From positions 13,977 through 77,976 of the forward strand of contig JACQWB010000265.1 of assembly GCA_016209385.1 (NCBI GenBank): a DNA stretch of 64,000 bases, read 5' to 3'. This DNA comes from Candidatus Rokuibacteriota bacterium. Lineage in GTDB: Bacteria; Methylomirabilota; Methylomirabilia; Rokubacteriales; CSP1-6. The notes under the pieces are model-generated. The model worked only from the letters and a program-made list of their open reading frames with translations. It was not told the DNA's origin and did not search any database. Shown here piece by piece: positions 28,417 to 51,248 of this stretch; the first letter of the stretch is position 1; every line of letters starts with the position of its first letter. The position numbers and the translations under genes were made by a program.

Positions 28417-28872
28417 TCACCCGCCAGCCTCGGCCCGCCGATCAGCCGGCGGCGACGCCAGTCGGCGTCGGACCAGATCGGGGAGGCGTGTTGGGTCGGC
28501 CGCGGCGGCGGCCTTCGCGACGAACTGAACCGCGCGGTCCCCGAACTGGTCGGGCTCCGGGACGTCGCCCGTCATGACGATCACGCGCAGGTCTCGGAGC
28601 GCTGGGTCCTCGCCGAGCGCCCGGATCAGGTCGGCCCCGGACTGGAGCGCCGCTCCCTCCCGGCTGCGGAGCCACAGGTCCACGATCGCGAGCGCCGGCC
28701 TGAGCGTCCGGATCCCGTCGAGGCCATCCGAGGCGGTCTCGGCGGACGCGGTCCGGAAGCCGCCCCGCTGGAGGAAGAGCTGGAAGCAGCGGGCCAGGTC
28801 CGCATCGTCCTCGACTAGGAAGACGAGCGGGGCACTCTCCGGGCCCTGGGCGATCCAGCGCGTCTGACTCAC
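28417..28872 (-). CDS. Single-domain response-regulator receiver (CheY-like), paralog of 26092..26592, translationally coupled to the lasso-cluster nucleotidyltransferase
   Basis: PLVFLVEDDADLARCFQLFLQRGGFRTASAETASDGLDGIRTLRPALAIVDLWLR. GTG start with a GGAGG SD 7 nt upstream, 13 nt after the stop of the upstream gene. The track ORF is extended to 28941. Confidence 0.65.
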   Translation of the reverse strand: MSQTRWIAQGPESAPLVFLVEDDADLARCFQLFLQRGGFRTASAETASDGLDGIRTLRPALAIVDLWLRSREGAALQSGADLIRALGEDPALRDLRVIVMTGDVPEPDQFGDRAVQFVAKAAAAADPTRLPDLVRRRLASPPADRRAEAGG

Positions 28873-28885
28873 GCGGCGACCTCCG

Positions 28886-30076: not shown

Positions 30077-31917
30077 CGCCGAACCTGCCCGGCGCCAGGG
30101 ACGCGCGACCGCTGGGGCCCGCAGTCTTCCCCGTGTTCACGCTCGGCGCCTTGCGCCTGCCACAGGGCGCGAAACCGCCCGCGCTCCCGCGCGATCAGAA
30201 TCCCCCAGGTTCCTGACTCCGCGAGGCGCCCGTCCTCGATCACGTAGATGATGTCGGCCTCCCGTACCGCGGAGAGCCGGTGGCTGATGACCACCAGTGT
30301 CAGCCTGCCGCGAAGGTTCCCCATCGCCTGTCGGATGCGTCGCTCGTTCTCAGAGTCCAGCGCGCTGACCGCTTCGTCCAGGATCAGGAGGCACGGCTTC
30401 CGGAGCAGCGCCCGGGCCAGGGCCAGACGCTGCCGTTCGCCCCCCGAGAGGAGCACGCCCCGATCGCCGACCATCGTGTCCAGTCCCTTCGGCAGTCTCG
30501 CCACGAACTCCTCGGCCGCTGCCAGGCTCAACGCCTCCCGGACCTCATCATCCGTCGCGCCTGGCGCCGCCCAGAGCAGGTTAGCGCGGACCGTGTCGTG
30601 GAAGAGAAAGGTCTCCTGGGTGACATAACCGATGCGGTCCCGCCAGGCTCCCACCCGCTCGGGAGTCAGCGGCACGCCGTCAACCAGCACGCGCCCGTCA
30701 TCGGGCGTGACCAGCCCGATGATCAGGTCGGCGATCGTGCTCTTGCCGCTCCCGGACGGGCCCACGATCGCGGTCGTCCGGCCGGCAGGAATACTCAGCT
30801 CGAGCTCGCGAATGACCGGGAGGCCGTCGTAGGCGAAGGAGACCCGATCCAGCCTGATGGCTGAGTTCAGCTCGACCGACTCGGCTCTGCGGGACCGGGG
30901 TTCCACCGCAGCCTCGCAGCGCCGCTGCATCTCCACGATCGACGCGAACGCCGGCAGCAGATTCACGAAGCTCTGATAGCTCTGCTGCACGCTGGCGAAC
31001 TTGGGCATCAGCCGTCCGAAGAGGAAGAGGAACAGGAGCAGCTCGGCGGCCGACAGGGCGAGCAGCTCGAGGGCCACGTACAGGATCGCGCTCAGGAGGC
31101 CCACCGAGCCGACCTCGAACCAGTACCTGACGTCAGCCTGGTTGCGGACGGCCCGCAGGTACATGTCCCGCACCCGCGCGCTGAGCCGCGCAAACAGCTC
31201 GGCGTGACGCTCCTCGGCCCCATAGCTCTTCGCGATCTTCATGCCGCCGAGATGCTCCGTCACGGCCGCGTACAAGTGGTTCGTCGCCTCGGAGAGCCCC
31301 TCGCCCGCCACGTGGGCCACCCGAGTCCGGCCCCTGAGCCCGACCATCAGCGCGACACCGCTGGCACAGATGACCGCTGTCATCATAAGCGAGAGCCTCA
31401 TCGCGAACCCGACATAGACAAGGACGACCACGGCGCTCGCCACCGAATGCAGCAGGCAGTGCGTCGCCCCGCCGACCCGTTCCACCTCGGCGGTCAGGAC
31501 ATGGGTGAAGTCCGCCGAGCGGCTCCGCGAAAAGAAGGGCCAGCTCGTATTAGCGATCGCCCGATAGAGCCGTGTCCGCAACGACGCCACAAACCCGTGC
31601 TCCACGCCGAGGCTGACGGTCGTCTGCCAGCGGGCCAGGAGCCCGTACAGGTTGACGATCAGCGCATAGGCGCCGAGCACGGCCACCAGGGTCGGGCCCA
31701 CGCCGGCCGCCGCAAAGATCGAGGAGACGAAGCGGGCGATCGCGCTCACGCCGCCCTGCTGAACATCCAGGCCGACGAGCTGGAGCAGCGGCACGAGCAT
31801 GAGGACCCCGATCCCTTCGGTCAGCCCCAGGCCGAGCATCAACCCGAGGGCCAGCGCGACCTTCCATCGCATCACGCCGACCAGGGTTGCCAGGTAGGAG
31901 CGGAAAGACTGGCGCAT
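30073..31917 (-). CDS. Fused TMD-NBD ABC exporter (lasso-peptide D protein, McjD-like)
   Basis: Walker A GPSGSGKST. ABC signature LSGGERQRLALARALL. Walker B LLILDEAVSALD. Six-helix N-terminal TMD. Confidence 0.85.
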   Translation of the reverse strand: MRQSFRSYLATLVGVMRWKVALALGLMLGLGLTEGIGVLMLVPLLQLVGLDVQQGGVSAIARFVSSIFAAAGVGPTLVAVLGAYALIVNLYGLLARWQTTVSLGVEHGFVASLRTRLYRAIANTSWPFFSRSRSADFTHVLTAEVERVGGATHCLLHSVASAVVVLVYVGFAMRLSLMMTAVICASGVALMVGLRGRTRVAHVAGEGLSEATNHLYAAVTEHLGGMKIAKSYGAEERHAELFARLSARVRDMYLRAVRNQADVRYWFEVGSVGLLSAILYVALELLALSAAELLLFLFLFGRLMPKFASVQQSYQSFVNLLPAFASIVEMQRRCEAAVEPRSRRAESVELNSAIRLDRVSFAYDGLPVIRELELSIPAGRTTAIVGPSGSGKSTIADLIIGLVTPDDGRVLVDGVPLTPERVGAWRDRIGYVTQETFLFHDTVRANLLWAAPGATDDEVREALSLAAAEEFVARLPKGLDTMVGDRGVLLSGGERQRLALARALLRKPCLLILDEAVSALDSENERRIRQAMGNLRGRLTLVVISHRLSAVREADIIYVIEDGRLAESGTWGILIARERGRFRALWQAQGAEREHGEDCGPQRSRVPGAGQVRR

Positions 31918-31918
31918 G

Positions 31919-32881
31919 TCAGAAGCGGCGGAGGTCCGACTCGAGCGCCGCGCGGACGGCCGGCAGCCGCGCGAGATCTCGCGGGAAGGCGAGGAGCCTG
32001 ACGGGAATCCGGGCGACGAGCCGCGCCGTCAGGTCGAACTGACGTGCGAGCCGTTCCGGTTCAACAATCACGGCGTTGAAGGTGTTCTTCAGCAGCGCGA
32101 GAAAGGCCTGGCGCGGAGCGAGCGGCCGGATCGTCACCCTTGCGCGTCGCGTATTCTGCGCCGGCGGCGTCAACACGTAGATCGCCTTCAGGGGCGCGGC
32201 GCCCAGCCAGGACATCTTCCACGCGAGCCGGATAACGAGTTTGGGCGTGAGGGGATTCATCGGGGTGCCCACGACCCCATCGCCGAACACGCGTTTGGCA
32301 ACCTCGGGAAAGAGCTTGATCCGTGGCGGGCCAGGCCACGCCCGGAAGCTGTGGCCGTTTTCTTCCACCACCAGGAGGTCGTCGGTCAGCAACGAATGCC
32401 CGGCCTGGAGAAAGGCCGCCCCAAGGCTCGACTTCCCGTAGCCGCAGTCGCCGACGAAGGCCACGGCCTTCCCGTCGACGACCACGACAGTCGCGTGGAG
32501 GGAATCGATGCCCTGCTTCAGGAGGGCGAACGAGAGGACCTGACCCAGCAGGTAGGTCTGAAACGCCTCGACGCTCCCGCCGTCGAGCGACCGGCCGGCG
32601 ATTCTACGCCCATCGGCCGAGATCACGAACTCGAACAGGCCCGACCATCGCAAATAACACGAGCCGTCGTCGAGCGACGCGTACCTGAACCAGGAAACGT
32701 CGTTCCGCTCGCCGCCGATCGTGCGATGGACTCGAGGGAAGAGCGATGCCGGTGCGCGGACCACCTCGGCGTCCACGCGGCCGCACCCGGCTACGCGACG
32801 ACACGGGAGCGGGATCACGCTCCGGACACTTAGCCCGTACGCCTGGTAGGCATACCGGCGTCTGGATCTCGACCGTGGCAC
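31919..32881 (-). CDS. HPr-kinase/phosphorylase-related kinase, a lasso-peptide tailoring kinase candidate
   Basis: P-loop VGDCGYGKSSLGAAFLQAGHSLLTDD matches the HprK C-terminal-domain Walker A. GTG start with an AGGAGG SD 5 nt upstream, immediately after the precursor ORF stop. Confidence 0.7.
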   Translation of the reverse strand: MPRSRSRRRYAYQAYGLSVRSVIPLPCRRVAGCGRVDAEVVRAPASLFPRVHRTIGGERNDVSWFRYASLDDGSCYLRWSGLFEFVISADGRRIAGRSLDGGSVEAFQTYLLGQVLSFALLKQGIDSLHATVVVVDGKAVAFVGDCGYGKSSLGAAFLQAGHSLLTDDLLVVEENGHSFRAWPGPPRIKLFPEVAKRVFGDGVVGTPMNPLTPKLVIRLAWKMSWLGAAPLKAIYVLTPPAQNTRRARVTIRPLAPRQAFLALLKNTFNAVIVEPERLARQFDLTARLVARIPVRLLAFPRDLARLPAVRAALESDLRRF

Positions 32882-32894
32882 CCCGGCCTCCTGA

Positions 32895-33044
32895 TTAACC
32901 TGTACCGGCCCTCGTCTTCGGGCCGGCCACGTTCGCCTCGCTCCTGTTCTTGGCCCCGCCCCTCGTGAGCGTTCGCAAGTCGCCGTAGCAGCGGAGTCGG
33001 GGCGGGGTGTACGGCTTTTTGGCCGGGCGGTTTAGCTTATTCAT
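32895..33044 (-). CDS. Candidate lasso-peptide precursor (A peptide), 49 aa, absent from the six-frame track
   Basis: Translation: MNKLNRPAKKPYTPPRLRCYGDLRTLTRGGAKNRSEANVAGPKTRAGTG*. The leader contains Y-T-P-P-R-L-R-C-Y-G (YxxPxLxxxG) and Thr at -2 (LTR|G). The core starts with Gly and has Glu8 as ring acceptor. GGGGGAG SD 8 nt upstream. It lies in the 164-bp gap between the cyclase and kinase genes. Confidence 0.6.
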   Translation of the reverse strand: MNKLNRPAKKPYTPPRLRCYGDLRTLTRGGAKNRSEANVAGPKTRAGTG

Positions 33045-33045
33045 C

Positions 33046-34923
33046 TCAACATCTCCCCCAGAATTTCTCGAGCCAGCGGTCCACGCTCACCAAGAACCAC
33101 ACCTCCCATCGAAGCTCCCTCTCCCCCCGGAGATAGCGGGTCACCAGCTCGTGCGCTCGCTCCAGGTCCACGTAGCGCCCCATCCGTCCCGAGCGATCCT
33201 CGAGCGGGGCGGGCGGATCACGGCGACAGAGAGCGGTCAGGTTTCGATCCATCGGATCGGTCCAGTCTCCCTTCCCCTGTCTCGACCGGATCGTGTCAGG
33301 CACGATCCCCTGCATCGATCGTCGCAAGATCCATTTTCGCTCGCCATCGCGCGTCCTCCGCTCCCAGGGGATCGAGAGGACGAACTCCACGAGCCGACTG
33401 TCCAGGAACGGATATCTGAGCTCCATGCCCCACCGGGCCACAGCCCGTTCGTCCACCTCGACCTTCAGGACATAGTAGGCCCCGGTCACGGAGACGTGTG
33501 TGTCAGCCTGGACGCAGGACGGGAACGGCAGCCGAACGCGCGGCTCGCGGATGCGCTCCCGCAGCCCGACCTCGCGGGCCAGGTGCGGGCGGATCCAGCT
33601 CGGTGGGGCGCGGCGGGCCGCCCGCTTGCCCCAGTACTTGAGCCGGGACGGGAGAAGGCTGGCGAGCGCCAGCTGGGCAAACTCCCACGGCTGGCCGCCG
33701 TACCAGCGGGCCAGCTCGCCGGTCTCGCGGATGAACCGTCCGGGCTTCAGCGTGCGCAGCAGATCGGCCAGGTAACCGATCTCGTCCAGGAGCTGGTCTC
33801 CACCGTCACCCGACAGGAGTACCCGGCACCCCCAGGCGTCAACCGACTCCAGCGAGGCGAGGCCGCTCTGGCGGTTCGCCGCGACGATCGGGCTCTCGAC
33901 CGACCAGAGGAGATCGTCAAGCCGGTAGAGCGGGTCGTCGTCCGACGCGTGGATCTCGTGCACCTTGACACCCGAGGCCCGGCCCACCGCCCGGACGTAC
34001 CGCCGCTCGTCAGAATCCGGGTGATCTGAAAAGAGCGTGAAGGCGTCCAGCGAGGGGGAGACCGCCCCGCCGTCGGCGAAGACCCGCGCGGCGGTACAGA
34101 CGATCGCCGACGAGTCCAGACCGCCGCTCACGAAGGCGCCGATCGGGAAGTCGCTGCGCGTGCGACACCTCACAGCCTCCGTGAAAAGGGAGCGGAAGTG
34201 CTCGGCGTATTCCTCGTCGCGGGCGTACCGGGTCTCCCGTGGCGGATCGACGGCCCAGTAACGCTCGATCCAAAGGCGTCCCTCCTCGAGCACGAGGAGG
34301 TGGCCGGGCGGGAGCCGATGGATTCCGCGGAAGAAGGTCCGCGCGTGATCCCCCTCCCGGAACTCCCTGAGCAAAAAGGCCAGGATCATCTCGTCGTCAG
34401 GTTCCGGCATCCGGTCAAGAACGGCGAGAATGGGCTTCGTCTCCGAGCTGATCAGCAGGGTGACGCCGTCCCACGTGTAGTGAAGCGGTTTGAGCCCGAG
34501 CCGGTCTCTCGCACAGAGAAGCCTCCCCCTTCGGCCATCCCAGAGCGCGAACGCAAACTCCCCGATGATTCTTCCCAGGGCGCCCGCTCCCCACTGCCTG
34601 TACGCCTCCAGCGTCAGCTCAGGATCGGTCTGACCCGAAAGCGGACGTCGCTCCGCCTTCAGGGCTGCGATCAGTTCCTCCCGGTTGTCGAGCCGGCCAT
34701 CCCAGACCAGCCGGCACGTGCCCTGGGAGTCAACCACTGGCTGCTCCTCGTGGAGAGACTCCGGGGTCGTGTAGAGGAGCCGATGAGCCAGCCCGACTGG
34801 CCCGCTCACCCACCGGCCCTCGCCATCGGGGCCCCGATGGGCCATGGCCCCCGACATCCGCTCCAGGAGACTCGGATCCACGGCCAGTCCGTAAGCGTGA
34901 CAGATCCCCACAAGCCCGCTCAT
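33046..34923 (-). CDS. Asparagine-synthetase-like lasso cyclase (C protein), copy 2
   Basis: Class-II amidotransferase and AsnB synthetase domains (SGGLDSS PP-loop). The N-terminus is MSGLVGICH: the nucleophilic Cys2 of true AsnB (compare MCGIAG at 48164) is replaced by Ser, as expected for lasso cyclases. Confidence 0.8.
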   Translation of the reverse strand: MSGLVGICHAYGLAVDPSLLERMSGAMAHRGPDGEGRWVSGPVGLAHRLLYTTPESLHEEQPVVDSQGTCRLVWDGRLDNREELIAALKAERRPLSGQTDPELTLEAYRQWGAGALGRIIGEFAFALWDGRRGRLLCARDRLGLKPLHYTWDGVTLLISSETKPILAVLDRMPEPDDEMILAFLLREFREGDHARTFFRGIHRLPPGHLLVLEEGRLWIERYWAVDPPRETRYARDEEYAEHFRSLFTEAVRCRTRSDFPIGAFVSGGLDSSAIVCTAARVFADGGAVSPSLDAFTLFSDHPDSDERRYVRAVGRASGVKVHEIHASDDDPLYRLDDLLWSVESPIVAANRQSGLASLESVDAWGCRVLLSGDGGDQLLDEIGYLADLLRTLKPGRFIRETGELARWYGGQPWEFAQLALASLLPSRLKYWGKRAARRAPPSWIRPHLAREVGLRERIREPRVRLPFPSCVQADTHVSVTGAYYVLKVEVDERAVARWGMELRYPFLDSRLVEFVLSIPWERRTRDGERKWILRRSMQGIVPDTIRSRQGKGDWTDPMDRNLTALCRRDPPAPLEDRSGRMGRYVDLERAHELVTRYLRGERELRWEVWFLVSVDRWLEKFWGRC

Positions 34924-36815
34924 GACTTACCTCTTCGTTCTGAGTTCCACTCGGGAAACCACTGCCGGAGCCACACCTCCAGCCTTGCGAAATTCCACAA
35001 GAGGTTCCGATGTCGCCCCTGCGTCCACACGTAGCGCTCCCGGAGCCGTTCGGCTTCCCGGCGGCTGACGTAGCGAAAGACCCGCCCGTCGGAACCGAAC
35101 AGGTCGCGCTCCAGCCGCTTCGCCTCCAGCTCAGTGGGCAGCCGGCCATTCATCACTGGGACGAACTGCGCGACCTCTTCGCGTTGCCTCACCGGCGCGA
35201 TGGCCGCCAGCGCGCGCTGGACGAACTGCTTTCGATAGCCGGGTGCCAGCGTCACGGCCGACGGCACGGCGAGGAAGAATTCCACCAGCCGTCGGTCCAG
35301 GTACGGGTGGCGGCACTCCAGCGAGAAGGCTGAGACCATCCCGTCCATCTGGTTCAGCGCGAGCGCCATCGCCGGTCGCGTGAGCGCGCGGTAGGTGGTT
35401 TCCTGGCACAGCGTCGGGAATCTCCGCCGCTCCCTCGGCATCGTCCACCGGTCCAGCCCGACCCGCGTGGCAAACTCGGCGTCGATCCAGCGGGGGAGCT
35501 GGCGCTTCACCCCAGCCCTGAAGAGCCGGCGGAGTCCAGGCGGAAATTGATCCCAGACGAGCGCCAGGACGGTCCGCCCGGAGCCAGTTCCGCCGTAGGC
35601 CGTCGAGCTGAGCCGGGCATGCCGGACCAGCGTTCCGAGCTGGAGCGAATGGAGAAGGTCCGCAAGATACCCCGCCTCGGCACGCTGGCTCAACTCGTCC
35701 GCTCCAAACCCTGTCAGCAGGACCCGGCAGCCCCGCGCCGCCGCCGGCCCGACGAGCGCCGGAATCGTGAGGGCAGGATCGTGGTGAGGGGTCTCGGCGC
35801 AGTCGAGGAAGAGCTCGAACAACGTGATCGGCCCGTCCGCTCCCTCAGGACGAACGAAGTGGACCTCGGTGCCGTATCTCCTGGCCAGGTGCTGGATCGC
35901 GTCCCACTCCTCCTGCAGGAACCCTTCGGCCAGCAGGGTGAACGCCGCCAGTTCGGGAACGCCCACATCCGCCAGCCGGAGCGTCTCTGCCGTCGCAGTG
36001 ACTAACGTCGAGTCGATTCCTCCGCTGAGCAGCAGTCCCACCGGCGAGCAGCTCCGGAGACGGCAGCGCACCGCCTCGCGGAAGAGCGCTGCGAACGCCT
36101 CGAGATAGTCCTCTTCCTTCGCGTACCGGGCCTGACGCGACGGATCCACGTCCCAGTAGCGCTCGATCGAGAGACCTGAGTCTGCCAGGCGAAGGACGTG
36201 GCCCGGTCTCAACTGCTTGATCCCCTCAAAGAAGGTCGCCTCGGGGTCGCGAAAGCCCATCAGGAGGTAATCGGCGATCATCGCCTCGTTTGGCCGCCTG
36301 GCGATCGCCGGATCGGCGAACAGCGCCTTCACCTCCGAGCCAAAGAGGAGCCGCTGGCCGGCCCAGTGGTAGTAGAAGGGTTTGACCCCGATCGGGTCTC
36401 GCGCGCACACGAGCTCCCGCCGTCTGCCGTCCCAGAGCGCGAACGCGAACTCGCCGACGATCCGCCTCACGCAGCCCGCGCCCCACTGCCCGTAGGCCTC
36501 CAGAACCAGCTCAGGATCGGTCAATCCTTCCTGATCGTGTCGGTCGATCTTCAGCGCCGCGATCAGCTCCTCACGGTTGTCGACCCGCCCATCCCAGGCG
36601 AGCTGGCAGGTCCCGTGAGCGTCCGCCAGCGGCTGCTTCTCGTGGAGCGACTCCGGGGTGGTGTGGAGCATCCGATGGCCCAGCCCGACCGGCCCTGCCA
36701 CCCACTGGCCCTCGCCGTCCGGGCCGCGATGCGCGAGGATGTCGGTCATGCGCTGGAGGAGCGCCGGGTCGGCCGGGCGCCCACCGCTGTGACAGATTCC
36801 GGCAATCGCGCTCAT
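34920..36815 (-). CDS. Asparagine-synthetase-like lasso cyclase (C protein), copy 1
   Basis: MSAIAGICH N-terminus (Cys2 replaced by Ser). SGGIDST PP-loop. 631 aa. ATGA overlap with copy 2. Confidence 0.8.
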   Translation of the reverse strand: MSAIAGICHSGGRPADPALLQRMTDILAHRGPDGEGQWVAGPVGLGHRMLHTTPESLHEKQPLADAHGTCQLAWDGRVDNREELIAALKIDRHDQEGLTDPELVLEAYGQWGAGCVRRIVGEFAFALWDGRRRELVCARDPIGVKPFYYHWAGQRLLFGSEVKALFADPAIARRPNEAMIADYLLMGFRDPEATFFEGIKQLRPGHVLRLADSGLSIERYWDVDPSRQARYAKEEDYLEAFAALFREAVRCRLRSCSPVGLLLSGGIDSTLVTATAETLRLADVGVPELAAFTLLAEGFLQEEWDAIQHLARRYGTEVHFVRPEGADGPITLFELFLDCAETPHHDPALTIPALVGPAAARGCRVLLTGFGADELSQRAEAGYLADLLHSLQLGTLVRHARLSSTAYGGTGSGRTVLALVWDQFPPGLRRLFRAGVKRQLPRWIDAEFATRVGLDRWTMPRERRRFPTLCQETTYRALTRPAMALALNQMDGMVSAFSLECRHPYLDRRLVEFFLAVPSAVTLAPGYRKQFVQRALAAIAPVRQREEVAQFVPVMNGRLPTELEAKRLERDLFGSDGRVFRYVSRREAERLRERYVWTQGRHRNLLWNFARLEVWLRQWFPEWNSERRGKS

Positions 36816-36824
36816 CTCACTGGC

Positions 36825-37268
36825 TCACCGCGAATGGAACAGCGGCTCATATCGCCCGGCCTCCTGACCGCCGAGGATCGGCTCGCCGGCGTAATCGAGC
36901 CAGGCGTGTGCCCTGAGCTTCCCCTCCTCGCGCGACACGCCGATCCGCAAGGCTGTCGGGATGCCCCACCGCCCGAGGAGCCACGAGAGGACGAGCGCCT
37001 TTTTCAGGCAGGTGGGGTTGACCGGCGCGTACCGGCCGGCAACCTCCACGAGCCAGACCACGCGAGCCAGGGATGCGGGGCGGCCCGAGGCCGGGGTCGC
37101 ACCCGTCGTGCGGGAGAGCTTCCGGTGGAGCCCCAGCAGCCGCTTGAAGCTCAGGACTCTCAGCGCCAGCTCCACGAGGAGAAAGAGCCCCCAGGCCTCG
37201 GCGAGGATGGCCCGCTCGCCGGGAGGGAGCCGGAATAAATTCCGCAGCCGCTCACTCAACGATTTCAA
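36825..37268 (-). CDS. Lasso-peptide B2 protein (transglutaminase-like cysteine protease)
   Basis: CLKKALVLSWLLGRWGIPTALRIGV...LRAHAWL carries the conserved Cys...His catalytic pair of the McjB C-terminal domain. 147 aa. Confidence 0.75.
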   Translation of the reverse strand: MKSLSERLRNLFRLPPGERAILAEAWGLFLLVELALRVLSFKRLLGLHRKLSRTTGATPASGRPASLARVVWLVEVAGRYAPVNPTCLKKALVLSWLLGRWGIPTALRIGVSREEGKLRAHAWLDYAGEPILGGQEAGRYEPLFHSR

Positions 37269-37551
37269 CTAAGTCGTTCTCCCGCAGTCGCGTGATGAAC
37301 TGGAGCAGATCGTCCGTGCAGCGTGGCTCCGCGACCGCGTACTCCTCCAGGAGCGCGTCACGCACCGCGCGCAGCGAGGCGTGCTCCCGGACGAGTTGCC
37401 AGATCCGCGTACCGGCCGGATCCAGGCCGAAGTAGACGCCGGTCTCGAGATTGAGGATGACGATCTCGCCCCCCAGATCGTGAAAGACGACGTCGTCTCG
37501 GATCCGGACTCGAGATGCGAGCGACAGTTCTCTCGCCAGCGCGGCACTCAT
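37252..37551 (-). CDS. Lasso-peptide B1 protein (PqqD-like RRE leader-recognition domain)
   Basis: MSAALARELSLASRVRIRDDVVFHDLGGEIVILNLETGVYFGLDPAGTRIWQLV is a PqqD-family fold. 99 aa. The start codon overlaps the stop of the upstream WecA-like gene. The track shows this only as the tail of a longer ORF. Confidence 0.7.
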   Translation of the reverse strand: MSAALARELSLASRVRIRDDVVFHDLGGEIVILNLETGVYFGLDPAGTRIWQLVREHASLRAVRDALLEEYAVAEPRCTDDLLQFITRLRENDLVEIVE

Positions 37552-38702
37552 CACAATAGCCTCCCCTTTCGCTCCAGGATCGTGAGGATCAGGAAGATGC
37601 TGAGGGCCTGGCAGAGCAGCAGGAAGGCGGAGAGCGCGGACGCCATCAGGAGGACCGTCGCCCCCACGCTGAGGCAGATGCTCAGCGCGTAGATCAACAG
37701 CACCGCGTGCTCTCGCCGCCCCAAGAGGTGCTCCATGCGGTGGTGGAGGTGGTCCCGCCCCACGTACTCGATCCATCCCCGGACGCCCTTCACCTTCCCC
37801 GAGACCACGCGATCCACGGTGATGTAGATCATGTCGTAGATGAACACGCCAAAGATGAGAATCGGCGCGGCCAGGTCCACGATCGTGTTCTCGGCCCACT
37901 CTCCCATCACGGCCAGCGACGCCAGCACGAACCCCAGGAAATTGGCCCCGGCGTCTCCCAGGAAGATCGTGGCGCGATCGCCCGGACGGAAATTGTAGGG
38001 GAGGAACCCGAGGGTGCTCCCGAGCAGAGCCGCCGCGACCCATCCGAGGAACACCTGCTGGCTCTGGTAGGCGATGATCCCCAGGAAGAAGGCGGCGATG
38101 GCGGCCAGGCCGGGAGCCAGGCCGTCCATCCCGTCCAGGAAGTTCATGGCGTTGGTGAGCCCCACGATCCAGAGGATGGTCAGGAAGATATTCAGCGCCT
38201 GCCCCCAGAGGGCACGGGTCGGAAACAGCGTCAGCGAGATCCCCGAGGCGATGACGATCCCTGTCGCGAGCAGCATGATGGCCAGCTTGAAGACAGCAGG
38301 GAGCGGGCGGACGTCGTCGACGCGGCTGATACAGATCACCAGTGTCCCGCCGGTCAGCAACCCCCAGAGGGCCGGCGTCAGGATCGAGTTCGCCAGCAGG
38401 CTGATCAGGAAGGCGAGATAGATCGCGACCCCGCCCAGCAGCGGAATCGGCTCGCCGTGGAGCTTCCGCGAATCCGGCCGGTCAACGATCCCCATCGCCA
38501 GCGCGAAGGCTCGAACCGGCCTGACCAAGAGGAAGGAGAGGAGGAACGAGAACAGGACGATGTAGAGCCACCTCAACCCTTCCTGGAAGAAGAAGCTCTT
38601 CACCGGGAAAAGGAAGAGCAGGAGCAACACGACGACGCCCAGGAGATACAGGAGCTGCCCCGCCGGGAGGGAGATCGTCGAGACACGAATGGCGGATCTC
38701 AC
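37551..38702 (-). CDS. WecA/MraY-family (GT4 polyprenyl-phosphate HexNAc-1-phosphate) initiating transferase
   Basis: Ten or more TM helices. Cytoplasmic loop motifs DDVxxL-like (ISRVDDVRPL) and NxxNxxDGxDGL (NAMNFLDGMDGLA). Confidence 0.8.
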   Translation of the reverse strand: MRSAIRVSTISLPAGQLLYLLGVVVLLLLFLFPVKSFFFQEGLRWLYIVLFSFLLSFLLVRPVRAFALAMGIVDRPDSRKLHGEPIPLLGGVAIYLAFLISLLANSILTPALWGLLTGGTLVICISRVDDVRPLPAVFKLAIMLLATGIVIASGISLTLFPTRALWGQALNIFLTILWIVGLTNAMNFLDGMDGLAPGLAAIAAFFLGIIAYQSQQVFLGWVAAALLGSTLGFLPYNFRPGDRATIFLGDAGANFLGFVLASLAVMGEWAENTIVDLAAPILIFGVFIYDMIYITVDRVVSGKVKGVRGWIEYVGRDHLHHRMEHLLGRREHAVLLIYALSICLSVGATVLLMASALSAFLLLCQALSIFLILTILERKGRLL

Positions 38703-39766
38703 CGGAAGCTCTCGAGCGCGGCTGCCACGACGCGCTCGATCTCCGCGTCCGTGAGGGAGGGATAGAGGGGAAGGGAGACAGCCTTCTCCCAGGCTTCTTC
38801 AGCGCCGGGAAATCCTCCCAGGCCGAGATACCAGTGAAGCGGTCGAAACACCGGTTGCCGCGCCTCCACGCCGCAGGTCTGAAGCCGGGCGAGGTAGTGG
38901 TCCGCGTCCCATGGCCCCTTGACCACGTAGCGGTAGTAGATCCGCGCTCGATCCTGAGGCGCGGCGGGAGGCTTCAGGTTCAGCGCGTGAAGCTGCTCGG
39001 CATAGAAGGACGCGATCGCCTCCCGCCGCTTGAGGAACTCGGGCAGCCGCTCGAGCTGAGCGAGCCCCAGGGCGGCCTGAAGGTCGGTCAGCTTGTAGTT
39101 GAAGCGCGGTCGGTCAGCGTCCTTTTGGTCGTACGCTCTGAGATCCCGCGCCATCGCCAAGATCCGCTCGTCGTTCGAGAGGAGCATCCCGCCTTCCCCG
39201 GTGGTGATGACCTTTGTGGCATAGAAGGAGAAGACCGAGGCTTCCCCGATACTTCCCACCGGCTCTCCCCGGTAGAACGCCCCCAGAGCATGCGCCGCCG
39301 CCTCGATGACGGGGAGCCCCAACGCCTTCAGCTCATCGAGGTCGGCGGGCAGGCCGAAGGAGTGGACCACGATCAGCGCCTTGGCCCTGGCCGAGCGCGC
39401 CTTGCGCGCCGCCGCCGGGTCTATGTTGAAGCTCTCGGGATCCGAGTCGACGAGGCGCGGGGCCGCCCGGACAGCTCTGACAGCGTGGAGCAGGGCCGAG
39501 CACGCGTAGGTTGGAAGGAGGACCTCGTCCCCGTCGCCGATGTTCAGCGCGAGCAGCGCGAGGTGAAGGGCTGCCGTCCCCGAGCTGCAGGCCACCGCGC
39601 CGCGAACCCCGACCAGCCGCGCCACCTCCCGCTCGAACGCGGCGACGCGGGCCCCCTGAGCGATGGAGCCGGACCTGACCACCTGGGCGAGGGCGTGAGC
39701 CTCGGCCTCGCCCAATGTGGGCCGCGAGTGAGAGATGGGAGCCCGTGTTGGCACGTCAGTCACCAT
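38699..39766 (-). CDS. DegT/DnrJ/EryC1/StrS-family PLP-dependent sugar aminotransferase
   Basis: AGAKPVFVD-like blocks ...GDEVLLPTYACSALLHAV..., SFYATKVITTGEGGMLLSND (PLP-lysine region), LRAYDQ. The ATG at 39766 gives a 355-aa product. The track ORF has a 100-aa Pro/Arg-rich false extension. Confidence 0.8.
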   Translation of the reverse strand: MVTDVPTRAPISHSRPTLGEAEAHALAQVVRSGSIAQGARVAAFEREVARLVGVRGAVACSSGTAALHLALLALNIGDGDEVLLPTYACSALLHAVRAVRAAPRLVDSDPESFNIDPAAARKARSARAKALIVVHSFGLPADLDELKALGLPVIEAAAHALGAFYRGEPVGSIGEASVFSFYATKVITTGEGGMLLSNDERILAMARDLRAYDQKDADRPRFNYKLTDLQAALGLAQLERLPEFLKRREAIASFYAEQLHALNLKPPAAPQDRARIYYRYVVKGPWDADHYLARLQTCGVEARQPVFRPLHWYLGLGGFPGAEEAWEKAVSLPLYPSLTDAEIERVVAAALESFR

Positions 39767-40373
39767 TGAGGAAGAGGCGCAAGGGCACGAAGCCCTCCGC
39801 GTTGCGGACCCTCCCCTGGATCCCGCGGAAGTGGGCGGCCGCCCGGGCCAGATCCAGGATGATGAGGCCCTCGACGCCCGTCTTCGCGACCTGGGAGGCA
39901 TGGGCGCCCAGGGCCGCCAGCTTCTGCTCCAGCACAGCGTCGATATCGACGAAGACCGAGGGGGTGAAGTTGGCCGTGGTCGGGCCTTCGTAGAGCAGGA
40001 CGTTGCGCGCATACCGGGAGGCCGTGACGACCGAGGTGGAGAGGTGCCGGTGGTCCTGATGGGTATCGTCACCGAAGTGCGCGAAGATCAGGTCCGGCTT
40101 GACGCGGTGAAGGAACCCCTCCACCTTCTGGATGAGGTCGCGATCCAGGGCGACCTCGGTGTCCGCGTAGCCGCCCCAGAAGATCTCCTGAGCTCCGAGC
40201 AGCTTCGCGGCCGCCTCCTGCTCCCGCCGTCGCTCCATCGCGTCCCCTCCCTGTGCGCCGTCCGTGAGGACCAGGAGGTGGACATCATGACCCTTCAGCG
40301 CGTACTTGATGAGAGCCCCACCGCAGCCGAACTCGATGTCATCCGGATGGGCACCGATCGCGAGGATGTTCAA
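39756..40373 (-). CDS. PIG-L/LmbE-family N-acetylglucosaminyl deacetylase
   Basis: NILAIGAHPDDIEFGCGGALIKY is the PIG-L HPDDE motif. A TTG start at 40373 is preferred, with an AAGGGAGGGGAG SD 6 nt upstream. A start at the upstream in-frame ATG (40490) would overlap the WbqC gene by about 120 nt. The track ORF is extended further, to 40565. Confidence 0.6.
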   Translation of the reverse strand: MNILAIGAHPDDIEFGCGGALIKYALKGHDVHLLVLTDGAQGGDAMERRREQEAAAKLLGAQEIFWGGYADTEVALDRDLIQKVEGFLHRVKPDLIFAHFGDDTHQDHRHLSTSVVTASRYARNVLLYEGPTTANFTPSVFVDIDAVLEQKLAALGAHASQVAKTGVEGLIILDLARAAAHFRGIQGRVRNAEGFVPLRLFLNGD

Positions 40374-41065
40374 CCGACTCCCCTCCCTTGCCTGAGAACA
40401 GAAAGACTCTGCGAACCGCAGTTGAACAACAGGTCCACGACAGAAAGGTTCGGCTCGAAGGGCCCGAATCGCTGGGGATACGCCGGACATCGAAAGTCCT
40501 GGAAGGCGAGCCGGATCCCCGCGTCGGCGAAGCGCTGGCGGTCCAGGTAGTCCAGCCCCCCGCATCCGGAGAGATAGGTGTCCCCCCCGAGAGCCTGACA
40601 GATCGCGATCAGCCGCTCGGTCTTCCCCTCCGCTTCACGAAGCGCCAGGGAAGAAGCCGGGACCAGCTTCGTCTGGATCCCGAGCGCGTCGACCAGATAC
40701 CCGAGGGTCTCGAGGGCCAGATCGATGAGCTGCGCCCACTGCCGGGAATAGACCTCCTCGAAGAACGCCCGGTGGGTTTCGAAGAACGGGGCGGCTGCGT
40801 AATTCAGGACCAGCGCCTGGAGGTGCTTCCGCGACCAGCGTGCGCGGTTGTTCACCCCGACCTCGGAAATCGCCTGGGGGAAGCGATGAAGGACGGGCAC
40901 GGTGAGCCACTGCCAGCCGGCGGCTGTCTTGATCCGGTTCCGGTTCTGCCACTCGTTCTTCTTGAACTGGACATGGTCGAGGAGCACGAAGCAGTCGGCT
41001 CGATCCATCTTGTCGAAGTAGCCCAGCCAGGGCAGGTACTGGGGCTGGTGCACCGCCACCTTCAT
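40370..41065 (-). CDS. WbqC-family protein (O-antigen-cluster protein of unknown function)
   Basis: MKVAVHQPQYLPWLGYFDKMDRADCFVLLDHVQFKKNEWQNRNRI is the characteristic WbqC N-terminus. Confidence 0.7.
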   Translation of the reverse strand: MKVAVHQPQYLPWLGYFDKMDRADCFVLLDHVQFKKNEWQNRNRIKTAAGWQWLTVPVLHRFPQAISEVGVNNRARWSRKHLQALVLNYAAAPFFETHRAFFEEVYSRQWAQLIDLALETLGYLVDALGIQTKLVPASSLALREAEGKTERLIAICQALGGDTYLSGCGGLDYLDRQRFADAGIRLAFQDFRCPAYPQRFGPFEPNLSVVDLLFNCGSQSLSVLRQGRGVG

Positions 41066-42528
41066 GCGCGCCTCCGGACGAAAATCGGATTGGAGAGGAG
41101 CCGGTGGGGTTTCTTGATGTCGATCCTGAAGAACTCGCGGCTCCCCGGCGCGGGCGGGGTCGCCTGCACGACCGTCTGGAACGGGGTCCTGCTCTCGAGG
41201 ACCGAGAGCACTCGGCCGGAGCGGATCAGCCTCAGGGTGAAGGGCACCTCCCGCCCGTCGCTGGCGGCGATCCGGAGGCTGACCAGCACGGGCCCTCGCC
41301 CGTGGGCTTCCAGCTCCCCTCCCATCGGCGTCCGCACGCGGCCGTCCTGGCCAACGGAGAAGTCCTCGAGCACGAGCGAGTACTCGGGCACCGGCGTGAC
41401 GGCGTAGTGCCGCCCCGCCCTGAGGGCCGAGAGGACACCCTCCCGAGAGCGTTCACGAACCAGGAAGATCGTCAGGACGTCGCCGAGCTGCTTCGCGGGG
41501 CCGTGGTAGCCCAGCTCGCCGATTCCCCAGGCTGGTCGAGTCCGGCGTCCCTGAGCGTACTCCAGGAGGAGCCGGTCCCAGTGCCGCCCTGGCTCTGTGA
41601 AGGTCACGTGGTCACCGTAGAGAGCCCCGAATCCCGTGTACCCGTGGCTCTGGAGCAGCGCCTCCGGGTACGGGTCGGTCCGGACCACCACCTGCCCCAG
41701 CCGGCCCATGTCGATGCGCTCGAAGTCCCGCGCCTCGGGAAAGGACCAGAGGACGGCCCCGCCCCGGGATTCGGCGTATTCGATCACACGCTGGTACGGC
41801 CCGATCCCCAGGCTCCCCTGGTACGCGTTGAGCTCCGAACCGGCGAAGGCCTCGAGCACGAGGAGCACGCCGAGCCCGATGGCCGACCATCCAGCCAGGC
41901 GGTACCGCGCCGGGACTTTGAGGGTGAAACGGGTCAGCCTGATCTCTCGGGCTCGCCGCGCTGTCAGCAAGCGAAGCCCGCAGCCGATCACCCCGACGGC
42001 CAAGGACAGCTTGAACACGCCCGCCCACCCGAACCCTGAAGCGCTCCCGTTTCCAATGGCCGGGATCTGCTCGTGGCTTTCGGCGCTGGAAAGGCCGACC
42101 ACCAGGAGGTTCTTCTGGACATCCCACAGGGTGAGATCTCCGCGCAGCGGGGAGCCGGTCCAGTAGTAGTGGGGGATGACTTCGACGCCGGGGATCAGGA
42201 TCACGTCGGGAAACCTCGCCTGGGCCGCCTCGACAGAGCGGAGCCACTGCCCGTTCCCAAGCCCCAGGACGGAAGGCCTTTCCACGACCTTCTTGACGAG
42301 GCCCCGGAAAGGAAAGAGGCCGTACTCGAACCGGAGGACGAAGTTCTCGGACAAGATCACGGCCCCGATCCCTTCCCGTCGCGCCGCTTCAACGACCTCA
42401 TCCAGGGAGCGGGAGCCGGTGGAGGCGGTCGTGTGAACATGGACCACGCCCTTCACCTGAAGGAGTGCGGTCTCGGCTTCCCCTGCCAGGAAGACGACCC
42501 CAAGGCCGGCGAGGATGAGCGCCTTCAT
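41062..42528 (-). CDS. PHP-domain protein with signal peptide and internal TM helices, a possible CpsB-type phosphoesterase
   Basis: VVHVHTTASTGSRSLDEVVEAARREGIGAVILSENF is the PHP HxH metal-binding start. Hydrophobic segments lie near aa 150-230. Confidence 0.5.
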   Translation of the reverse strand: MKALILAGLGVVFLAGEAETALLQVKGVVHVHTTASTGSRSLDEVVEAARREGIGAVILSENFVLRFEYGLFPFRGLVKKVVERPSVLGLGNGQWLRSVEAAQARFPDVILIPGVEVIPHYYWTGSPLRGDLTLWDVQKNLLVVGLSSAESHEQIPAIGNGSASGFGWAGVFKLSLAVGVIGCGLRLLTARRAREIRLTRFTLKVPARYRLAGWSAIGLGVLLVLEAFAGSELNAYQGSLGIGPYQRVIEYAESRGGAVLWSFPEARDFERIDMGRLGQVVVRTDPYPEALLQSHGYTGFGALYGDHVTFTEPGRHWDRLLLEYAQGRRTRPAWGIGELGYHGPAKQLGDVLTIFLVRERSREGVLSALRAGRHYAVTPVPEYSLVLEDFSVGQDGRVRTPMGGELEAHGRGPVLVSLRIAASDGREVPFTLRLIRSGRVLSVLESRTPFQTVVQATPPAPGSREFFRIDIKKPHRLLSNPIFVRRRA

Positions 42529-43742
42529 CGCGTCGGCTCCGCGCGGTCAAGCAGCCCGCGGTAGAGGTCCTCGATCCTCTCAAGCATGACCCCGACGCTA
42601 TAGCCGGCCGCCCGCTTACTGCCCGCGCTGGCGAGCCTCAGCCTGAGCGCCGGATCGAGAAGGAGGACCTCGATGCCCCTGACCAGGGCCGCTGCGCTGC
42701 CGGCTTCGACAAGTAGCCCTGCCTCGCCGTCCCCCAGGATGTCAGGGATCCCGCCGGTCCGCGACGCGACAATGGGCAGGCCGGCCGCCATGGCCTCCAC
42801 CAATGCCCTGCCCATCCCCTCGTTGAGTGACGGGAGGACGAAGAGGTCGAAGGCATGCAGGAGGACGGAGGGGTCATCCCGCCAACCCAGGAAGAGCACC
42901 CGATCCGCCACGCCCCAGCGTTGGGCGAGACTGCGGAGGGCAGCAGTCAGCTCTCCGTCACCCACGAGGGCCAGGGAGAGCGCTGGGAACCGCGGGGCGA
43001 GTCGTACAAACGCCTCAAGCAGGTGGATATGTCCCTTGACAGGCTCGAGTCGTCCGACAGACCCGATCAGGAATGCGTCATCGGGAACCCCGAGGGAGGC
43101 GCGGATCCCTGAACGCCGGGAGCGGAGCGATTCGGTGCCGAACCGTTCGATGTCGACCCCGCTGGGGATGCTGACGAACTGTCCGGGCTTCCCGATCTTC
43201 AGCGCCAGATGATCCCGGATCTCCTGCTCCGTCAGCCCGATGATCCGATCGGTGAAGGTTGCGGCCCAGCGCTCCAGGAGGATGAAGAGTCTGGTCAGCA
43301 TCCTTCCGGCGTAACCCGTAAAGACGTGGCCGTGCGGGGTGTGAACGAGATGGGGAACCCCGGCCAGCCGCGCCGCGACCCTCCCCAGGATTCCGGCCTT
43401 CGACGAATGGGTGTGGACGATGTCGAACCTCCCCCGCCGGATGAGCCGGCAGATCTTCACGAGTGCCACTAGGTCCTTCAGGGGCGAGATATGGCGCACC
43501 AGCTCGCCGACTTCTGTCATCTCCACCTTTCCCCGAAGCTCCCGGGCCTCGGGCGGCAACTCCCGTGTCGCGCCGTAGATCAGGCTCGACCGGAAGGGCG
43601 ACGAGAGGCCAGCCACGGTCAGGAGCGTGTTCGTGGTCGAGCCTCCCGGGTCCAGGCGGGTGATGAGGTGGAGAACCCGCACCACGGGGGTTCCCAGCCT
43701 CCCCGCCCGGTCCTCGAGGCCCCTTTCCAGTGTCTCCAGCAT
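42525..43742 (-). CDS. GT4 (group 1) glycosyltransferase
   Basis: VRVLHLITRLDPGGSTTNTL...EGMGRALVEAMAAGLPIVASRTGGIPDIL. The start is uncertain; the track ORF extends to 43877. Confidence 0.7.
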   Translation of the reverse strand: MLETLERGLEDRAGRLGTPVVRVLHLITRLDPGGSTTNTLLTVAGLSSPFRSSLIYGATRELPPEARELRGKVEMTEVGELVRHISPLKDLVALVKICRLIRRGRFDIVHTHSSKAGILGRVAARLAGVPHLVHTPHGHVFTGYAGRMLTRLFILLERWAATFTDRIIGLTEQEIRDHLALKIGKPGQFVSIPSGVDIERFGTESLRSRRSGIRASLGVPDDAFLIGSVGRLEPVKGHIHLLEAFVRLAPRFPALSLALVGDGELTAALRSLAQRWGVADRVLFLGWRDDPSVLLHAFDLFVLPSLNEGMGRALVEAMAAGLPIVASRTGGIPDILGDGEAGLLVEAGSAAALVRGIEVLLLDPALRLRLASAGSKRAAGYSVGVMLERIEDLYRGLLDRAEPTR

Positions 43743-43951
43743 CGAGAGATCCTCGGAGGGGGGCTCCGCCCCCCTTCCGAACCTCCCCCAGAGGTTGCGC
43801 GGGCCAAGCCCGCGCTCGGAGCGCTTCGGCCGTGTCCAGGTGGACGATTGGAGCATTCGAGTGGAGCTTTCCAGCACCCTGCTCTAGTCCCTCTGGCTAT
43901 CGCCGGGCTGCCCGTATCGGGGCGCGTAGCAGCCGAGCGTCGTGATAGGGA

Positions 43952-45172
43952 TCACGCCCCGCACCTGGTCTTCTCCTCGACGCGATCGATCAGGTCGAGA
44001 AGCTCTTGTTCCAGCCGGTCGATGATCCGATCCCAGCCGAAGCAGGCTGAGGCGTAGATCCGGCAGCGCTTCCGCAGGGCCTCATAGCGCTGGGGATCAG
44101 CCCGGAACTGTCGGAGGTGGCCTCGAATTCCCTGGGCGATGGCCTCAGGGCGGGTTCCCCCGAACACCAGATCGGGCTCGAGCCCTCCGAGGACTTCGGG
44201 GATCGCCCCCACCGGGGTCCCCAGGACCGGCGTCCCACAGGCGAGGGCCTCCACCGCCACCAGGCCGAATCCTTCCAGCTCCTTCGATGGGAGGACGAAG
44301 AAGTCCGCCGCCTGGTAGAGCAACGGGAGCCGCTCTTCGGGCACGTACCCCTCGAACCGGACGGCCCGCTCCAGACCCAACCGGTGGGCGAGGTCCCTGA
44401 GAGCGCCTTCGATCGGACCCTCGCCCCCAACGATCAGGATGACATCGTCCAGGGTCTTGACGACGCTCTGCATCGCCTGCAGGAGATGATCAAGCCCCAT
44501 CCGCGGTTCCAGGTTCCGGATCGTGAGGAGCACGGGGCTCCGGAGAGGCAGCCCGAGCATTTCCTTCACCGCGAGCCGGTCGTGGACGGGCCTGAACTGA
44601 TCGAGGTCAACGCCGCCTGGCACGATGGCCGCCCGGCCGTTGAGCCCGCGATGCTCCGCCTCGAGCCGACCCGCCATGAAGCGGCTCAGCACGAAAATCC
44701 GGCGGCAGGCCTTTAACACGAACCGCTCGACGCTCCGCCGGAGGAGCCTCCCGCCCGCATGAAGATTCAAGTATGAGCTGCGGGATTTCCCATCGGGAAC
44801 CCGAGCCGCGTACTCCTCGCCCCACGGCGAGAGGAACACACACGCCTTCGGGAGGTGGCGGCTTCCCGGCGCCAGGAGTACGCCGAGGCCGGAAAGGGGC
44901 TGGTGGAAGATGAGGACATCGAAGCGGACGTGGCGGGCGAGGATCCGAAAGAGGCGGAAGGACCCCAAGCAGGAGCGAAGTGATCGCCGGTAGCGGTAGA
45001 CCCGCACCCCTCCGATCTCTTCGACGGCGTTTCCCCGGCCGTCACGGGTTCCGGCGATGAGGTACACGCTGTGACCCCGTTTGGCCAGGCCCTGGCAATG
45101 GCCAGCGAGCAGTCGCTCCGCGCCGCTTCTCCCTGTCATCAGGTCAACGTCCGAGACCACCAGGACATTCAC
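43952..45172 (-). CDS. GT4 (group 1) glycosyltransferase
   Basis: MNVLVVSDVDLMTGRSGAERLLAGHCQGLAKRGHSVYLIAG...EGFGLVAVEALACGTPVLGTPVGAIPEVL. Confidence 0.8.
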   Translation of the reverse strand: MNVLVVSDVDLMTGRSGAERLLAGHCQGLAKRGHSVYLIAGTRDGRGNAVEEIGGVRVYRYRRSLRSCLGSFRLFRILARHVRFDVLIFHQPLSGLGVLLAPGSRHLPKACVFLSPWGEEYAARVPDGKSRSSYLNLHAGGRLLRRSVERFVLKACRRIFVLSRFMAGRLEAEHRGLNGRAAIVPGGVDLDQFRPVHDRLAVKEMLGLPLRSPVLLTIRNLEPRMGLDHLLQAMQSVVKTLDDVILIVGGEGPIEGALRDLAHRLGLERAVRFEGYVPEERLPLLYQAADFFVLPSKELEGFGLVAVEALACGTPVLGTPVGAIPEVLGGLEPDLVFGGTRPEAIAQGIRGHLRQFRADPQRYEALRKRCRIYASACFGWDRIIDRLEQELLDLIDRVEEKTRCGA

Positions 45173-50544: not shown

Positions 50545-50549
50545 ATGCC

Positions 50550-51242: not shown

Positions 51243-51248
51243 GCTCGT

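Follow-up and report, generated by a model that had tools for sequence, protein, structure and literature searches.

We have analyzed a 64,000-nucleotide stretch of a Candidatus Rokuibacteriota genome (contig JACQWB010000265.1, positions 13,977 to 77,976 of the forward strand; hereafter the window), in which a WecA-like gene at the 3′ end of an exopolysaccharide (EPS) locus runs directly into B1, the first gene of a lasso peptide cassette. The junction is real and recurs in related Rokubacteria and NC10 bacteria, and it probably has a regulatory consequence. In the explanation that we favor, with a probability of about 70%, this is an operon junction, and the lasso cassette is an exchangeable accessory module on the 3′ end of the glycan operon, with no evident promoter of its own and expressed by read-through. 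A unidirectional EPS gene string of ~35 kb would thus be extended in the 3′ direction by a self-sufficient class II lasso cassette, which encodes everything from the precursor, the leader-recognition protein and the peptidase to the cyclase(s), the kinase, the exporter and the nucleotidyltransferase.

The junction is made up of the following elements.
37551..38702, minus strand: WecA-like gene (PF00953, 118.9 bits) for a predicted polyprenyl-phosphate HexNAc-1-phosphate transferase, ending ...AGG CTA TTG TGA
37549..37553, minus strand: TGATG stop/start overlap with one shared base (the A at 37551)
37560..37564, minus strand: GGAGG, the Shine-Dalgarno (SD) sequence for B1, within the WecA-like coding sequence, 8 nt 5′ of the ATG

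Read directly from the minus strand, the WecA-like stop codon TGA occupies 37553..37551 and the B1 start codon ATG occupies 37551..37549. The overlap at 37551 given in a preliminary description of this locus is therefore correct to the base, as is its account of a nearly gapless minus-strand string of ~35 kb: between 63926 and 28886 the widest intergenic gap, from GT1b to GT1a, is 74 nt with the starts of the longest open reading frames (ORFs). The coding sequence of B1 begins ATG AGT GCC GCG, and its frame stays open upstream to 38043 in a mechanically generated ORF list. We place the start at the ATG at 37551 because the PqqD domain spans residues 29–95 of the resulting 99-residue product, and because the homologues in L013, L014 and L106 start at the equivalent position (L-numbers denote loci or contigs of relatives compared with the window). 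The GTG at 37547 in the ORF list lies in a different frame.

Overlaps of 1 or 4 nt occur at 10 of the 32 tabulated junctions (30 inside 63926..28886 and two beyond, as far as the PIN toxin gene), so that the WecA-like/B1 overlap is ordinary operon packing and not improbable on its own. The junction is notable for the genes that it joins and for its recurrence in relatives, not for the overlap itself. It has the features of a translationally coupled junction, namely an overlap, an SD sequence in the upstream gene, a common strand and no terminator-like site. A promoter or terminator separating the two genes was looked for and none was found: a scan of 27500..42000, which is a weak test, gave no terminator-like site at the junction, and no sigma-70 promoter there, the sigma-70 model being uninformative for the host phylum. 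In all, the scan returned a single promoter-like site, on the plus strand, and four terminator-like sites, all weak; shuffled sequence gave more such sites.

The cassette consists of eight genes in the order B1-B2-C-C′-A-K-D-N, from 37551 down to 28886, with all reading frames intact.
37252..37551, minus strand: B1, PqqD-type leader-recognition protein (recognition element, RRE, for a peptide made on the ribosome and modified after translation, RiPP), 99 aa; PF05402, 62.9 bits
36825..37268, minus strand: B2, transglutaminase-like leader peptidase, 147 aa, TTG start uncertain; PF13471, 78.7 bits
34920..36815, minus strand: C1, asparagine-synthetase-like lasso cyclase homologue, 631 aa; best NCBIfam match NF033535, 458 bits
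33046..34923, minus strand: C2, second tandem cyclase homologue, 625 aa, 44% identical to C1; NF033535, 455 bits
32895..33044, minus strand: A, lasso precursor, 49 aa, MNKLNRPAKKPYTPPRLRCYGDLRTLTR/GGAKNRSEANVAGPKTRAGTG (predicted leader/core), recognized as an ORF with the leader motif
31919..32881, minus strand: K, HPr-kinase-like kinase, 320 aa; PF07475, 25.9 bits (cut-off 33.3)
30073..31917, minus strand: D, ABC exporter with fused permease and ATPase, 614 aa; PF00005 and PF00664
28886..30076, minus strand: N, nucleotidyltransferase, 396 aa, last gene of the cassette; PF14907, 166.7 bits

B2 exceeds the cut-off of the lasso_biosyn_B2 model (NF033537; 90.4 bits versus 33 bits), and B1 scores 62.9 bits against lasso_PqqD_Bac (NF033536), under the cut-off of 80 bits. 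Both cyclase homologues fall under the cut-off of the lasso isopeptide cyclase model NF033535 (525 bits). They keep the PP-loop, as SGGIDS in C1 and SGGLDS in C2, and start MSAIAG and MSGLVG, respectively; beginning with MSA or MSG and not with MCG, they are without the glutaminase nucleophile Cys2. The tandem pair is kept in six related cassettes (L003, L004, L006, L008, L010 and L011), and NC10-type cassettes (L013) have a single cyclase. No report of lasso clusters with two cyclases was found in the literature. K scores 38.5 bits against TIGR04352 (cut-off 200) and has a weak P-loop match to HPr kinases in the PDB, confined to residues 127–191 (E = 4e-4). A K gene is present in every cassette examined, with orthologues 55–67% identical, and N orthologues are likewise present in all of them; a sequence search gave no PDB relative of N. 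D is 68% identical to the exporter of L010.

The precursor, which the preliminary description had not located, has a leader of the form Y12xxP15xL17xxxG21xxxxxT27, corresponding to the lasso pattern YxxPxLxxxGxxxxxT, with the Thr at position −2. Its core of 21 residues begins with Gly-Gly and has Glu at position 8, from which a Gly1–Glu8 ring is predicted. Among eight precursor family members from related cassettes, the leader residues Y, P, L, G, D, L, L and T are invariant, and the core has Gly or Ala as its first residue and Glu or Asp as its eighth in all of them. The precursor scores 18.0 bits against lasso_leader_L3 (NF033521), just under the 19-bit cut-off. An identical protein was gene-called on two short metagenome contigs, the only matches returned by an exact look-up; the runs with this precursor are SRR12113401 and SRR12113390. 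All eight homologues end in Gly or Ala, so that the C-terminal position is nowhere Ser, and a conserved K-[T/S]-[R/K] motif lies 3–6 residues before the C-terminus of the core, as PKTR in the window precursor, where its Thr is residue 44. This PK[T/S][R/K] element near the C-terminus is a candidate modification site. The core is also unusually hydrophilic, with few bulky plug residues.

With the precursor motif, the B1 and B2 proteins and PP-loop cyclases devoid of the glutaminase nucleophile, the features that define class II lasso systems are present. As judged from sequence, the block downstream of the WecA-like gene is a genuine lasso cluster, as the preliminary description had proposed. 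It belongs to the type with a kinase and a nucleotidyltransferase, and a threaded topology of its product is predicted.

Relatives of the WecA-like gene were collected by genome and metagenome scans, and the fetched loci were searched with blastp and hidden Markov models (HMMs). WecA orthologues are up to 84% identical in Rokubacteria and NC10, a conservation far above that of the lasso genes. The comparison set consisted of 12 other distinct contigs from these groups with a WecA that shares at least 68% identity with that of the window. B1 lies directly 3′ of WecA in six of the 12 (L013 (=L024), L014 from NC10 bacterium SPGG6, L025, L026, L078 and L106 (=L107)), and in two more (L104 and L105) a cassette-type ABC-2 transporter gene is coupled to WecA. 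The L104 transporter is 73% identical to one within the L003 cassette, and L104 also carries N and PqqD genes on the opposite strand. One contig (L015) ends ~0.5 kb after WecA and is uninformative; a tight WecA-to-cassette junction is thus found in 8 of 11 informative related contigs. The junction reads ATGA in L013, L014, L025, L078 and L105, GTGA in L026 and TAGTG in L104, and is a 5-nt spacer in L106. All WecA-linked junctions range from a 4-nt overlap to a 5-nt spacer, in lineages of 59–71% GC. An SD sequence for B1 stands at the equivalent place in L013 (AGGAGA), L014 (AGGAAA) and L106 (AAGGAGG). Lasso B2 and C genes are absent from all 71 loci that have a WecA less than 68% identical and usable sequence downstream of it. 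The WecA–cassette arrangement is a real, recurrent pairing in Rokubacteria and NC10 that may have a functional meaning.

Starting from the cyclase instead, we obtained six distinct contexts (L003, L004/5, L006/7, L008/9, L010 and L011), all with the order B1-B2-C-C′-A-K-(D or ABC-2)-N. L003 and L010, which hold the closest cassettes (C1 ~67% identical), have a cytidylate-kinase/BON gene as the 5′ neighbor, and L004/5 has a methyltransferase gene in this place. The L006 and L011 cassettes stand alone beside divergent, unrelated genes, with an upstream gap of 200–500 nt. The cassettes of L003, L005 and L010 start no more than 10 nt after an upstream gene on the same strand, and being appended in this way suggests that the family often relies on promoters of host operons. 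In two of these contexts, the neighborhood downstream of the cassette is informative.
L008, 10243..14341: the cassette, an opposite-strand HtrA-like protease gene, then Poly_export, AAA_22 and HD_5 genes
L003, 13413..14582: an HtrA neighbor beside the cassette as in L008, followed by the end of the contig

The Poly_export, AAA_22 and HD_5 genes of L008, ~2 kb downstream of the cassette, are the same EPS export genes that open the EPS locus of the window, so that some seemingly unlinked cassettes still adjoin EPS loci. Synteny in relatives, which the preliminary description had put forward as a check, gives a divided answer: the tight WecA junction is reproduced in the 8 of 11 contigs, but members of this cassette family, among them the nearest relatives in L003 and L010, are found at other loci. 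This is in part the outcome that the preliminary description had named as a refutation, and the cyclase-derived contexts taken alone would have amounted to one.

The slot after WecA holds differing cassette variants and architectures across lineages. The window belongs to a WecA clade with L104, L105 and L106 (76–86% identity), and a second, NC10 clade comprises L013, L014, L025 and L078 (83–88% identity). The window B1 and B2 are 62–68% and 58–60% identical, respectively, to those of the free-standing L003 and L010 cassettes, and only 51% and 41% identical to those of L106, though the L106 WecA is 83% identical. As differing variants occupy the slot and the same family occurs elsewhere, we read the cassette as an exchangeable accessory module. 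A recent insertion, which the preliminary description expected to be visible as a shift in GC or codon usage, left no such mark: the GC content at third codon positions (GC3) is 0.844 in both the cassette and the six-gene glycan module that ends with the WecA-like gene, and 0.86 in the remaining EPS genes, with similar codon usage and no shift between the cassette and its neighbors. The cassette-free relatives offer no empty site with a clean insertion boundary, as the region after WecA differs in each, with type II secretion system (T2SS) genes in L108, SPOR/DUF2062/MscS genes in L109 and nothing recognizable in L019. Neither the Rfam scan nor the tRNA scan of the window gave a match, and it thus contains no tRNA integration site or riboswitch. 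L010, a free-standing cassette, and L109, a WecA locus without a cassette, share an assembly accession; this is compatible with a single organism carrying the cassette elsewhere, but is not proof of it.

The cassette is very likely co-transcribed with the glycan operon; this, like the chemistry of its product and any tie to the glycan, is inferred. In the mechanism that we propose, transcripts of the glycan operon would read through into the cassette, and translation of B1 would be coupled to termination of the WecA-like gene through the TGATG overlap and the GGAGG within the WecA-like coding sequence. B1 would then bind the leader, B2 would cut after Thr-Arg, and a cyclase would join Gly1 to Glu8. 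By analogy with paeninodin and pseudomycoidin (PMC8498205), K may phosphorylate the peptide and N may decorate it further, before export of the finished peptide, presumably by D. The predicted product is an exported lasso peptide that is phosphorylated, and possibly further decorated, on the conserved Thr/Ser near its C-terminus. Read-through expression would imply that the peptide is produced together with the polysaccharide.

Of the two possibilities raised in the preliminary description, co-expression with the polysaccharide operon or insertion into it, the former is the most economical reading, given that there is no terminator-like site, that the SD sequence lies inside the WecA-like coding sequence and that the junction is tight in 8 of 11 contigs; the latter, as a recent event, has no compositional sign. 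Several points weigh against the overall explanation. A promoter may lie inside the WecA-like gene. Three of the 12 close relatives (L019, L108 and L109 (=L110)) have unrelated genes after WecA and no cassette, and none of the six cyclase-derived contexts has a WecA gene nearby, which means that the pairing is not obligatory. As to the product, K matches HPr-kinase models only below their cut-offs, and the core is without the terminal Ser that is the known target of paeninodin-type kinases, which require this residue of the precursor (PMC8498205); the modification site proposed here would follow from conservation. If the adjacency were mere compaction, with the cassette using its own promoter in the 3′ part of the WecA-like gene, regulation would be independent and the overlap would have no regulatory consequence. 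The local frequency of overlaps (10 of 32 junctions) agrees with this, and the stand-alone L006 and L011 cassettes with their upstream gaps indicate that the family can use a promoter of its own. Coupling, however, fits better with WecA-linked junctions that stay within a 4-nt overlap and a 5-nt spacer over 59–71% GC, the L003, L005 and L010 cassettes follow a same-strand gene just as closely, and the weak scan detected no promoter-like site at the junction. We therefore regard compaction as unlikely.

Far less probable still is that the block does not encode a lasso peptide at all, but polysaccharide-modifying amidotransferases with accessory proteins, or that the WecA-like gene is a self-resistance copy belonging to the cluster. 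C1 and C2, which fall under the lasso cyclase cut-off, do score above the 267.1-bit cut-off of TIGR01536, a generic model of asparagine synthases (306 and 272 bits), and a true EPS-type amidotransferase, AsnB, is encoded in the same operon. That AsnB, however, starts with MCG and has the Cys2 needed for glutamine hydrolysis, which C1 and C2 are without, and B1, B2 and a precursor with a lasso leader and a Gly1/Glu8 core are present and conserved. We rejected the WecA-like gene as a RiPP self-resistance copy, as it is part of a six-gene module conserved in many phyla without lasso genes.

A further proposal, which we find doubtful, is a biochemical link between the peptide and the glycan. N would add to the phosphopeptide a sugar for which the adjacent DegT/PIG-L/WbqC genes make the activated precursor, or the peptide would act on or regulate the polysaccharide machinery, and selection would keep RiPP cassettes with a kinase and a nucleotidyltransferase beside the module. 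The slot is filled by different variants of three architectures, always tightly coupled, and the case of pseudomycoidin demonstrates that an enzyme of this type is able to glycosylate a phosphorylated lasso peptide (PMC8498205). The proximity of the L008 cassette (~2 kb) to EPS export genes points the same way, as do PF14907 (NTP_transf_5) genes that close the EPS loci of L071 and L091, and unrelated, RiPP-like radical SAM cassettes with PqqD and NTP_transf_5 genes beside or inside the module in the distant L015, L020 and L085/L086.
L015, 1114..4437: PqqD, HPr-kinase-like, PF14907 and radical SAM/SPASM genes
L020 (Verrucomicrobia metagenome-assembled genome), 5607..8737: PqqD, PF14907, radical SAM and S24/S26-like peptidase genes, no kinase detected
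L085/L086 (L086, 2538..9305): PqqD, HPr-kinase-like, PF14907 and radical SAM/SPASM genes

On the other side, at least three of the six cyclase-derived contexts (L004, L006 and L011) have no glycan genes within the up to 10 kb available on each side, three close WecA relatives lack the cassette, and such cassettes are found in only 2–3 of 65 loci with WecA less than 55% identical, a frequency for which the genome-wide background rate was not measured. Moreover, a WecA-like enzyme yields a lipid-linked sugar and not a nucleotide sugar, and the PF14907 protein has no PDB relative that would indicate its donor. The broader version, in which PqqD/HPr-kinase-like/PF14907 RiPP cassettes, whether of lasso or radical SAM type, are functionally integrated with a lipid-linked amino-sugar module, is just as tentative. 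The peptide would then be phospho-glycosylated with the sugar of the module, or be a co-secreted partner or regulator of the polysaccharide. If true, such integration would explain why differing coupled cassettes stand behind the same gene in Rokubacteria, in NC10 and occasionally in Verrucomicrobia.

The glycan locus upstream of the junction opens, on the minus strand, with an AAA ATPase weakly similar to TIGR03015 (PEP-CTERM ATPase), followed by an HD protein, Wza, a SPOR-containing Wzc and a Wzy-like protein. Next come several glycosyltransferases (GT4 and GT2) and methyltransferases, two proteins with a CDP-alcohol phosphatidyltransferase domain, a Wzx flippase and AsnB, and the locus ends in the six-gene module GT4/PHP-like 488-aa protein/WbqC/PIG-L/DegT/WecA-like.
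58435..61131, minus strand: Wzc-like chain-length/tyrosine-kinase protein with a C-terminal SPOR (peptidoglycan-binding) domain
53301..55957, minus strand: two CDP-alcohol phosphatidyltransferase-domain genes, one fused to a methyltransferase domain
46296..48191, minus strand: EPS-type AsnB amidotransferase, starting MCG
38699..43877, minus strand: module genes 5′ of the WecA-like gene, encoding DegT aminotransferase, PIG-L deacetylase, WbqC, the 488-aa PHP-like protein and GT4 (Pfam assignments)
41062..42528, minus strand: the 488-aa protein, with no Pfam match above threshold and a weak PHP/CehA-McbA metallohydrolase signal

The order of the six-gene module is kept in nearly all of ~90 WecA loci from several phyla. 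The WecA-like protein scores 119 bits against the WecA model TIGR02380, under the equivalog cut-off of 326 bits, and from these profile matches is a member of the MraY/WecA superfamily that falls outside the WecA equivalog. The DegT protein scores 222 bits against the PseC model (cut-off 423.5). Despite its weak signal, the 488-aa protein is kept in nearly every GT4/WbqC/PIG-L/DegT/WecA locus across phyla. The CDP-alcohol phosphatidyltransferase genes are unusual for a polysaccharide locus, and may indicate decoration with a phospho-alcohol.

The flagellar genes of the window form a separate unit on the opposite strand.
112..25418, plus strand: block typical of flagellin glycosylation islands
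19469..20911, plus strand: FliD
27532..27975, minus strand: PIN toxin
27972..28214, minus strand: FitA-like ribbon-helix-helix (RHH) antitoxin, overlapping the PIN toxin gene by 4 nt and just downstream of the cassette
28417..28941: response-regulator-like ORF overlapping the end of the nucleotidyltransferase gene

The plus-strand block encodes a 1681-residue protein with two methyltransferase domains, several glycosyltransferase domains and TPR repeats, as well as TPR-GT2 proteins, a transketolase-like protein, a DUF4915 protein, a PAS histidine kinase/receiver hybrid and another large glycosyltransferase-like protein. It is split off from the cassette by the response-regulator-like ORF and the FitA/PIN pair, and is not co-transcribed with the lasso genes. 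The earlier suggestion that the lasso peptide is made together with flagellar-glycan machinery is therefore not borne out.

Lasso peptides are usually regarded as products of separate, independently regulated clusters. In the window, an entire lasso cassette forms the tail of a surface-polysaccharide operon, an arrangement kept, with swapping of cassettes, in an uncultured soil lineage. Shared expression, if true, would tie the output of the peptide to the state of the matrix or biofilm. If N used the sugar of the neighboring pathway, the result would be a glycosylated lasso peptide of a novel kind, and the system would provide a handle on the function of PF14907. The tandem cyclase homologues and the internal conserved Thr/Ser that replaces the C-terminal Ser are unstudied features of this family.

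Among known systems, the cassette works like those of pseudomycoidin and paeninodin. The EPS locus itself resembles XrtA/PEP-CTERM EPS loci in having an AAA ATPase, an AsnB-type amidotransferase, Wza, Wzc, Wzy and many GT4 enzymes in one string, but its markers are below cut-off (TIGR03015, 140.8 versus 324.5 bits; TIGR03108, 585 versus 816.9 bits), and no exosortase was identified among the window genes scanned for domains. SynChlorMet (Scm)/HPr-rel-A systems (NCBIfam) share a PqqD-type protein and an HPr-kinase-like protein with the window, and the L015 and L085/L086 cassettes resemble this type. The window, in contrast, uses B2 and a cyclase and not a radical SAM enzyme, with TIGR04352 and TIGR04353 far below cut-off; a precomputed weak ScmC Pfam match is on record for the L004 kinase.

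The combination of lasso and EPS genes, which the preliminary description took to be undescribed, has partial precedents in pseudomycoidin (PMC8498205) and in Butyrivibrio (PMC7533575). As to the junction, our literature search turned up neither a lasso cassette described as translationally coupled to a WecA-type gene nor an account of such cassettes being paired with an EPS operon in a conserved way. Lasso clusters of Butyrivibrio fibrisolvens have been listed in silico with nucleotidyltransferase, HPr kinase, GT2 and EpsH neighbors (PMC7533575). They are similar to the window in that glycosyltransferase or EPS-type genes lie beside a kinase/nucleotidyltransferase lasso cluster, and differ in phylum and in their glycan genes, with no WecA-type enzyme and no reported coupling or conservation analysis. 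The paeninodin type (Paenibacillus, Sphingobium) has an HPr-kinase homologue, to which K may correspond, and shares a split B protein and an exporter with the window (PMC8498205), whereas the window family is without the C-terminal Ser and its kinase matches HPr-kinase models weakly. The nearest likeness is pseudomycoidin from Bacillus pseudomycoides, a lasso peptide that is phosphorylated and then glycosylated, with the kinase PsmK and the nucleotidyltransferase PsmN (PMC8498205). Its cluster has the same split B1/B2, asparagine-synthetase-like cyclase, HPr-kinase-like kinase, nucleotidyltransferase and ABC exporter, the nucleotidyltransferase likeness being one of enzyme type by description. 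Compared to it, the window core ends in Gly and not in Ser and has the conserved internal PK[T/S][R/K], and the cassette has two tandem cyclase homologues, places the precursor gene in mid-cluster, resides in a Rokubacterium and continues a glycan operon at its 3′ end.

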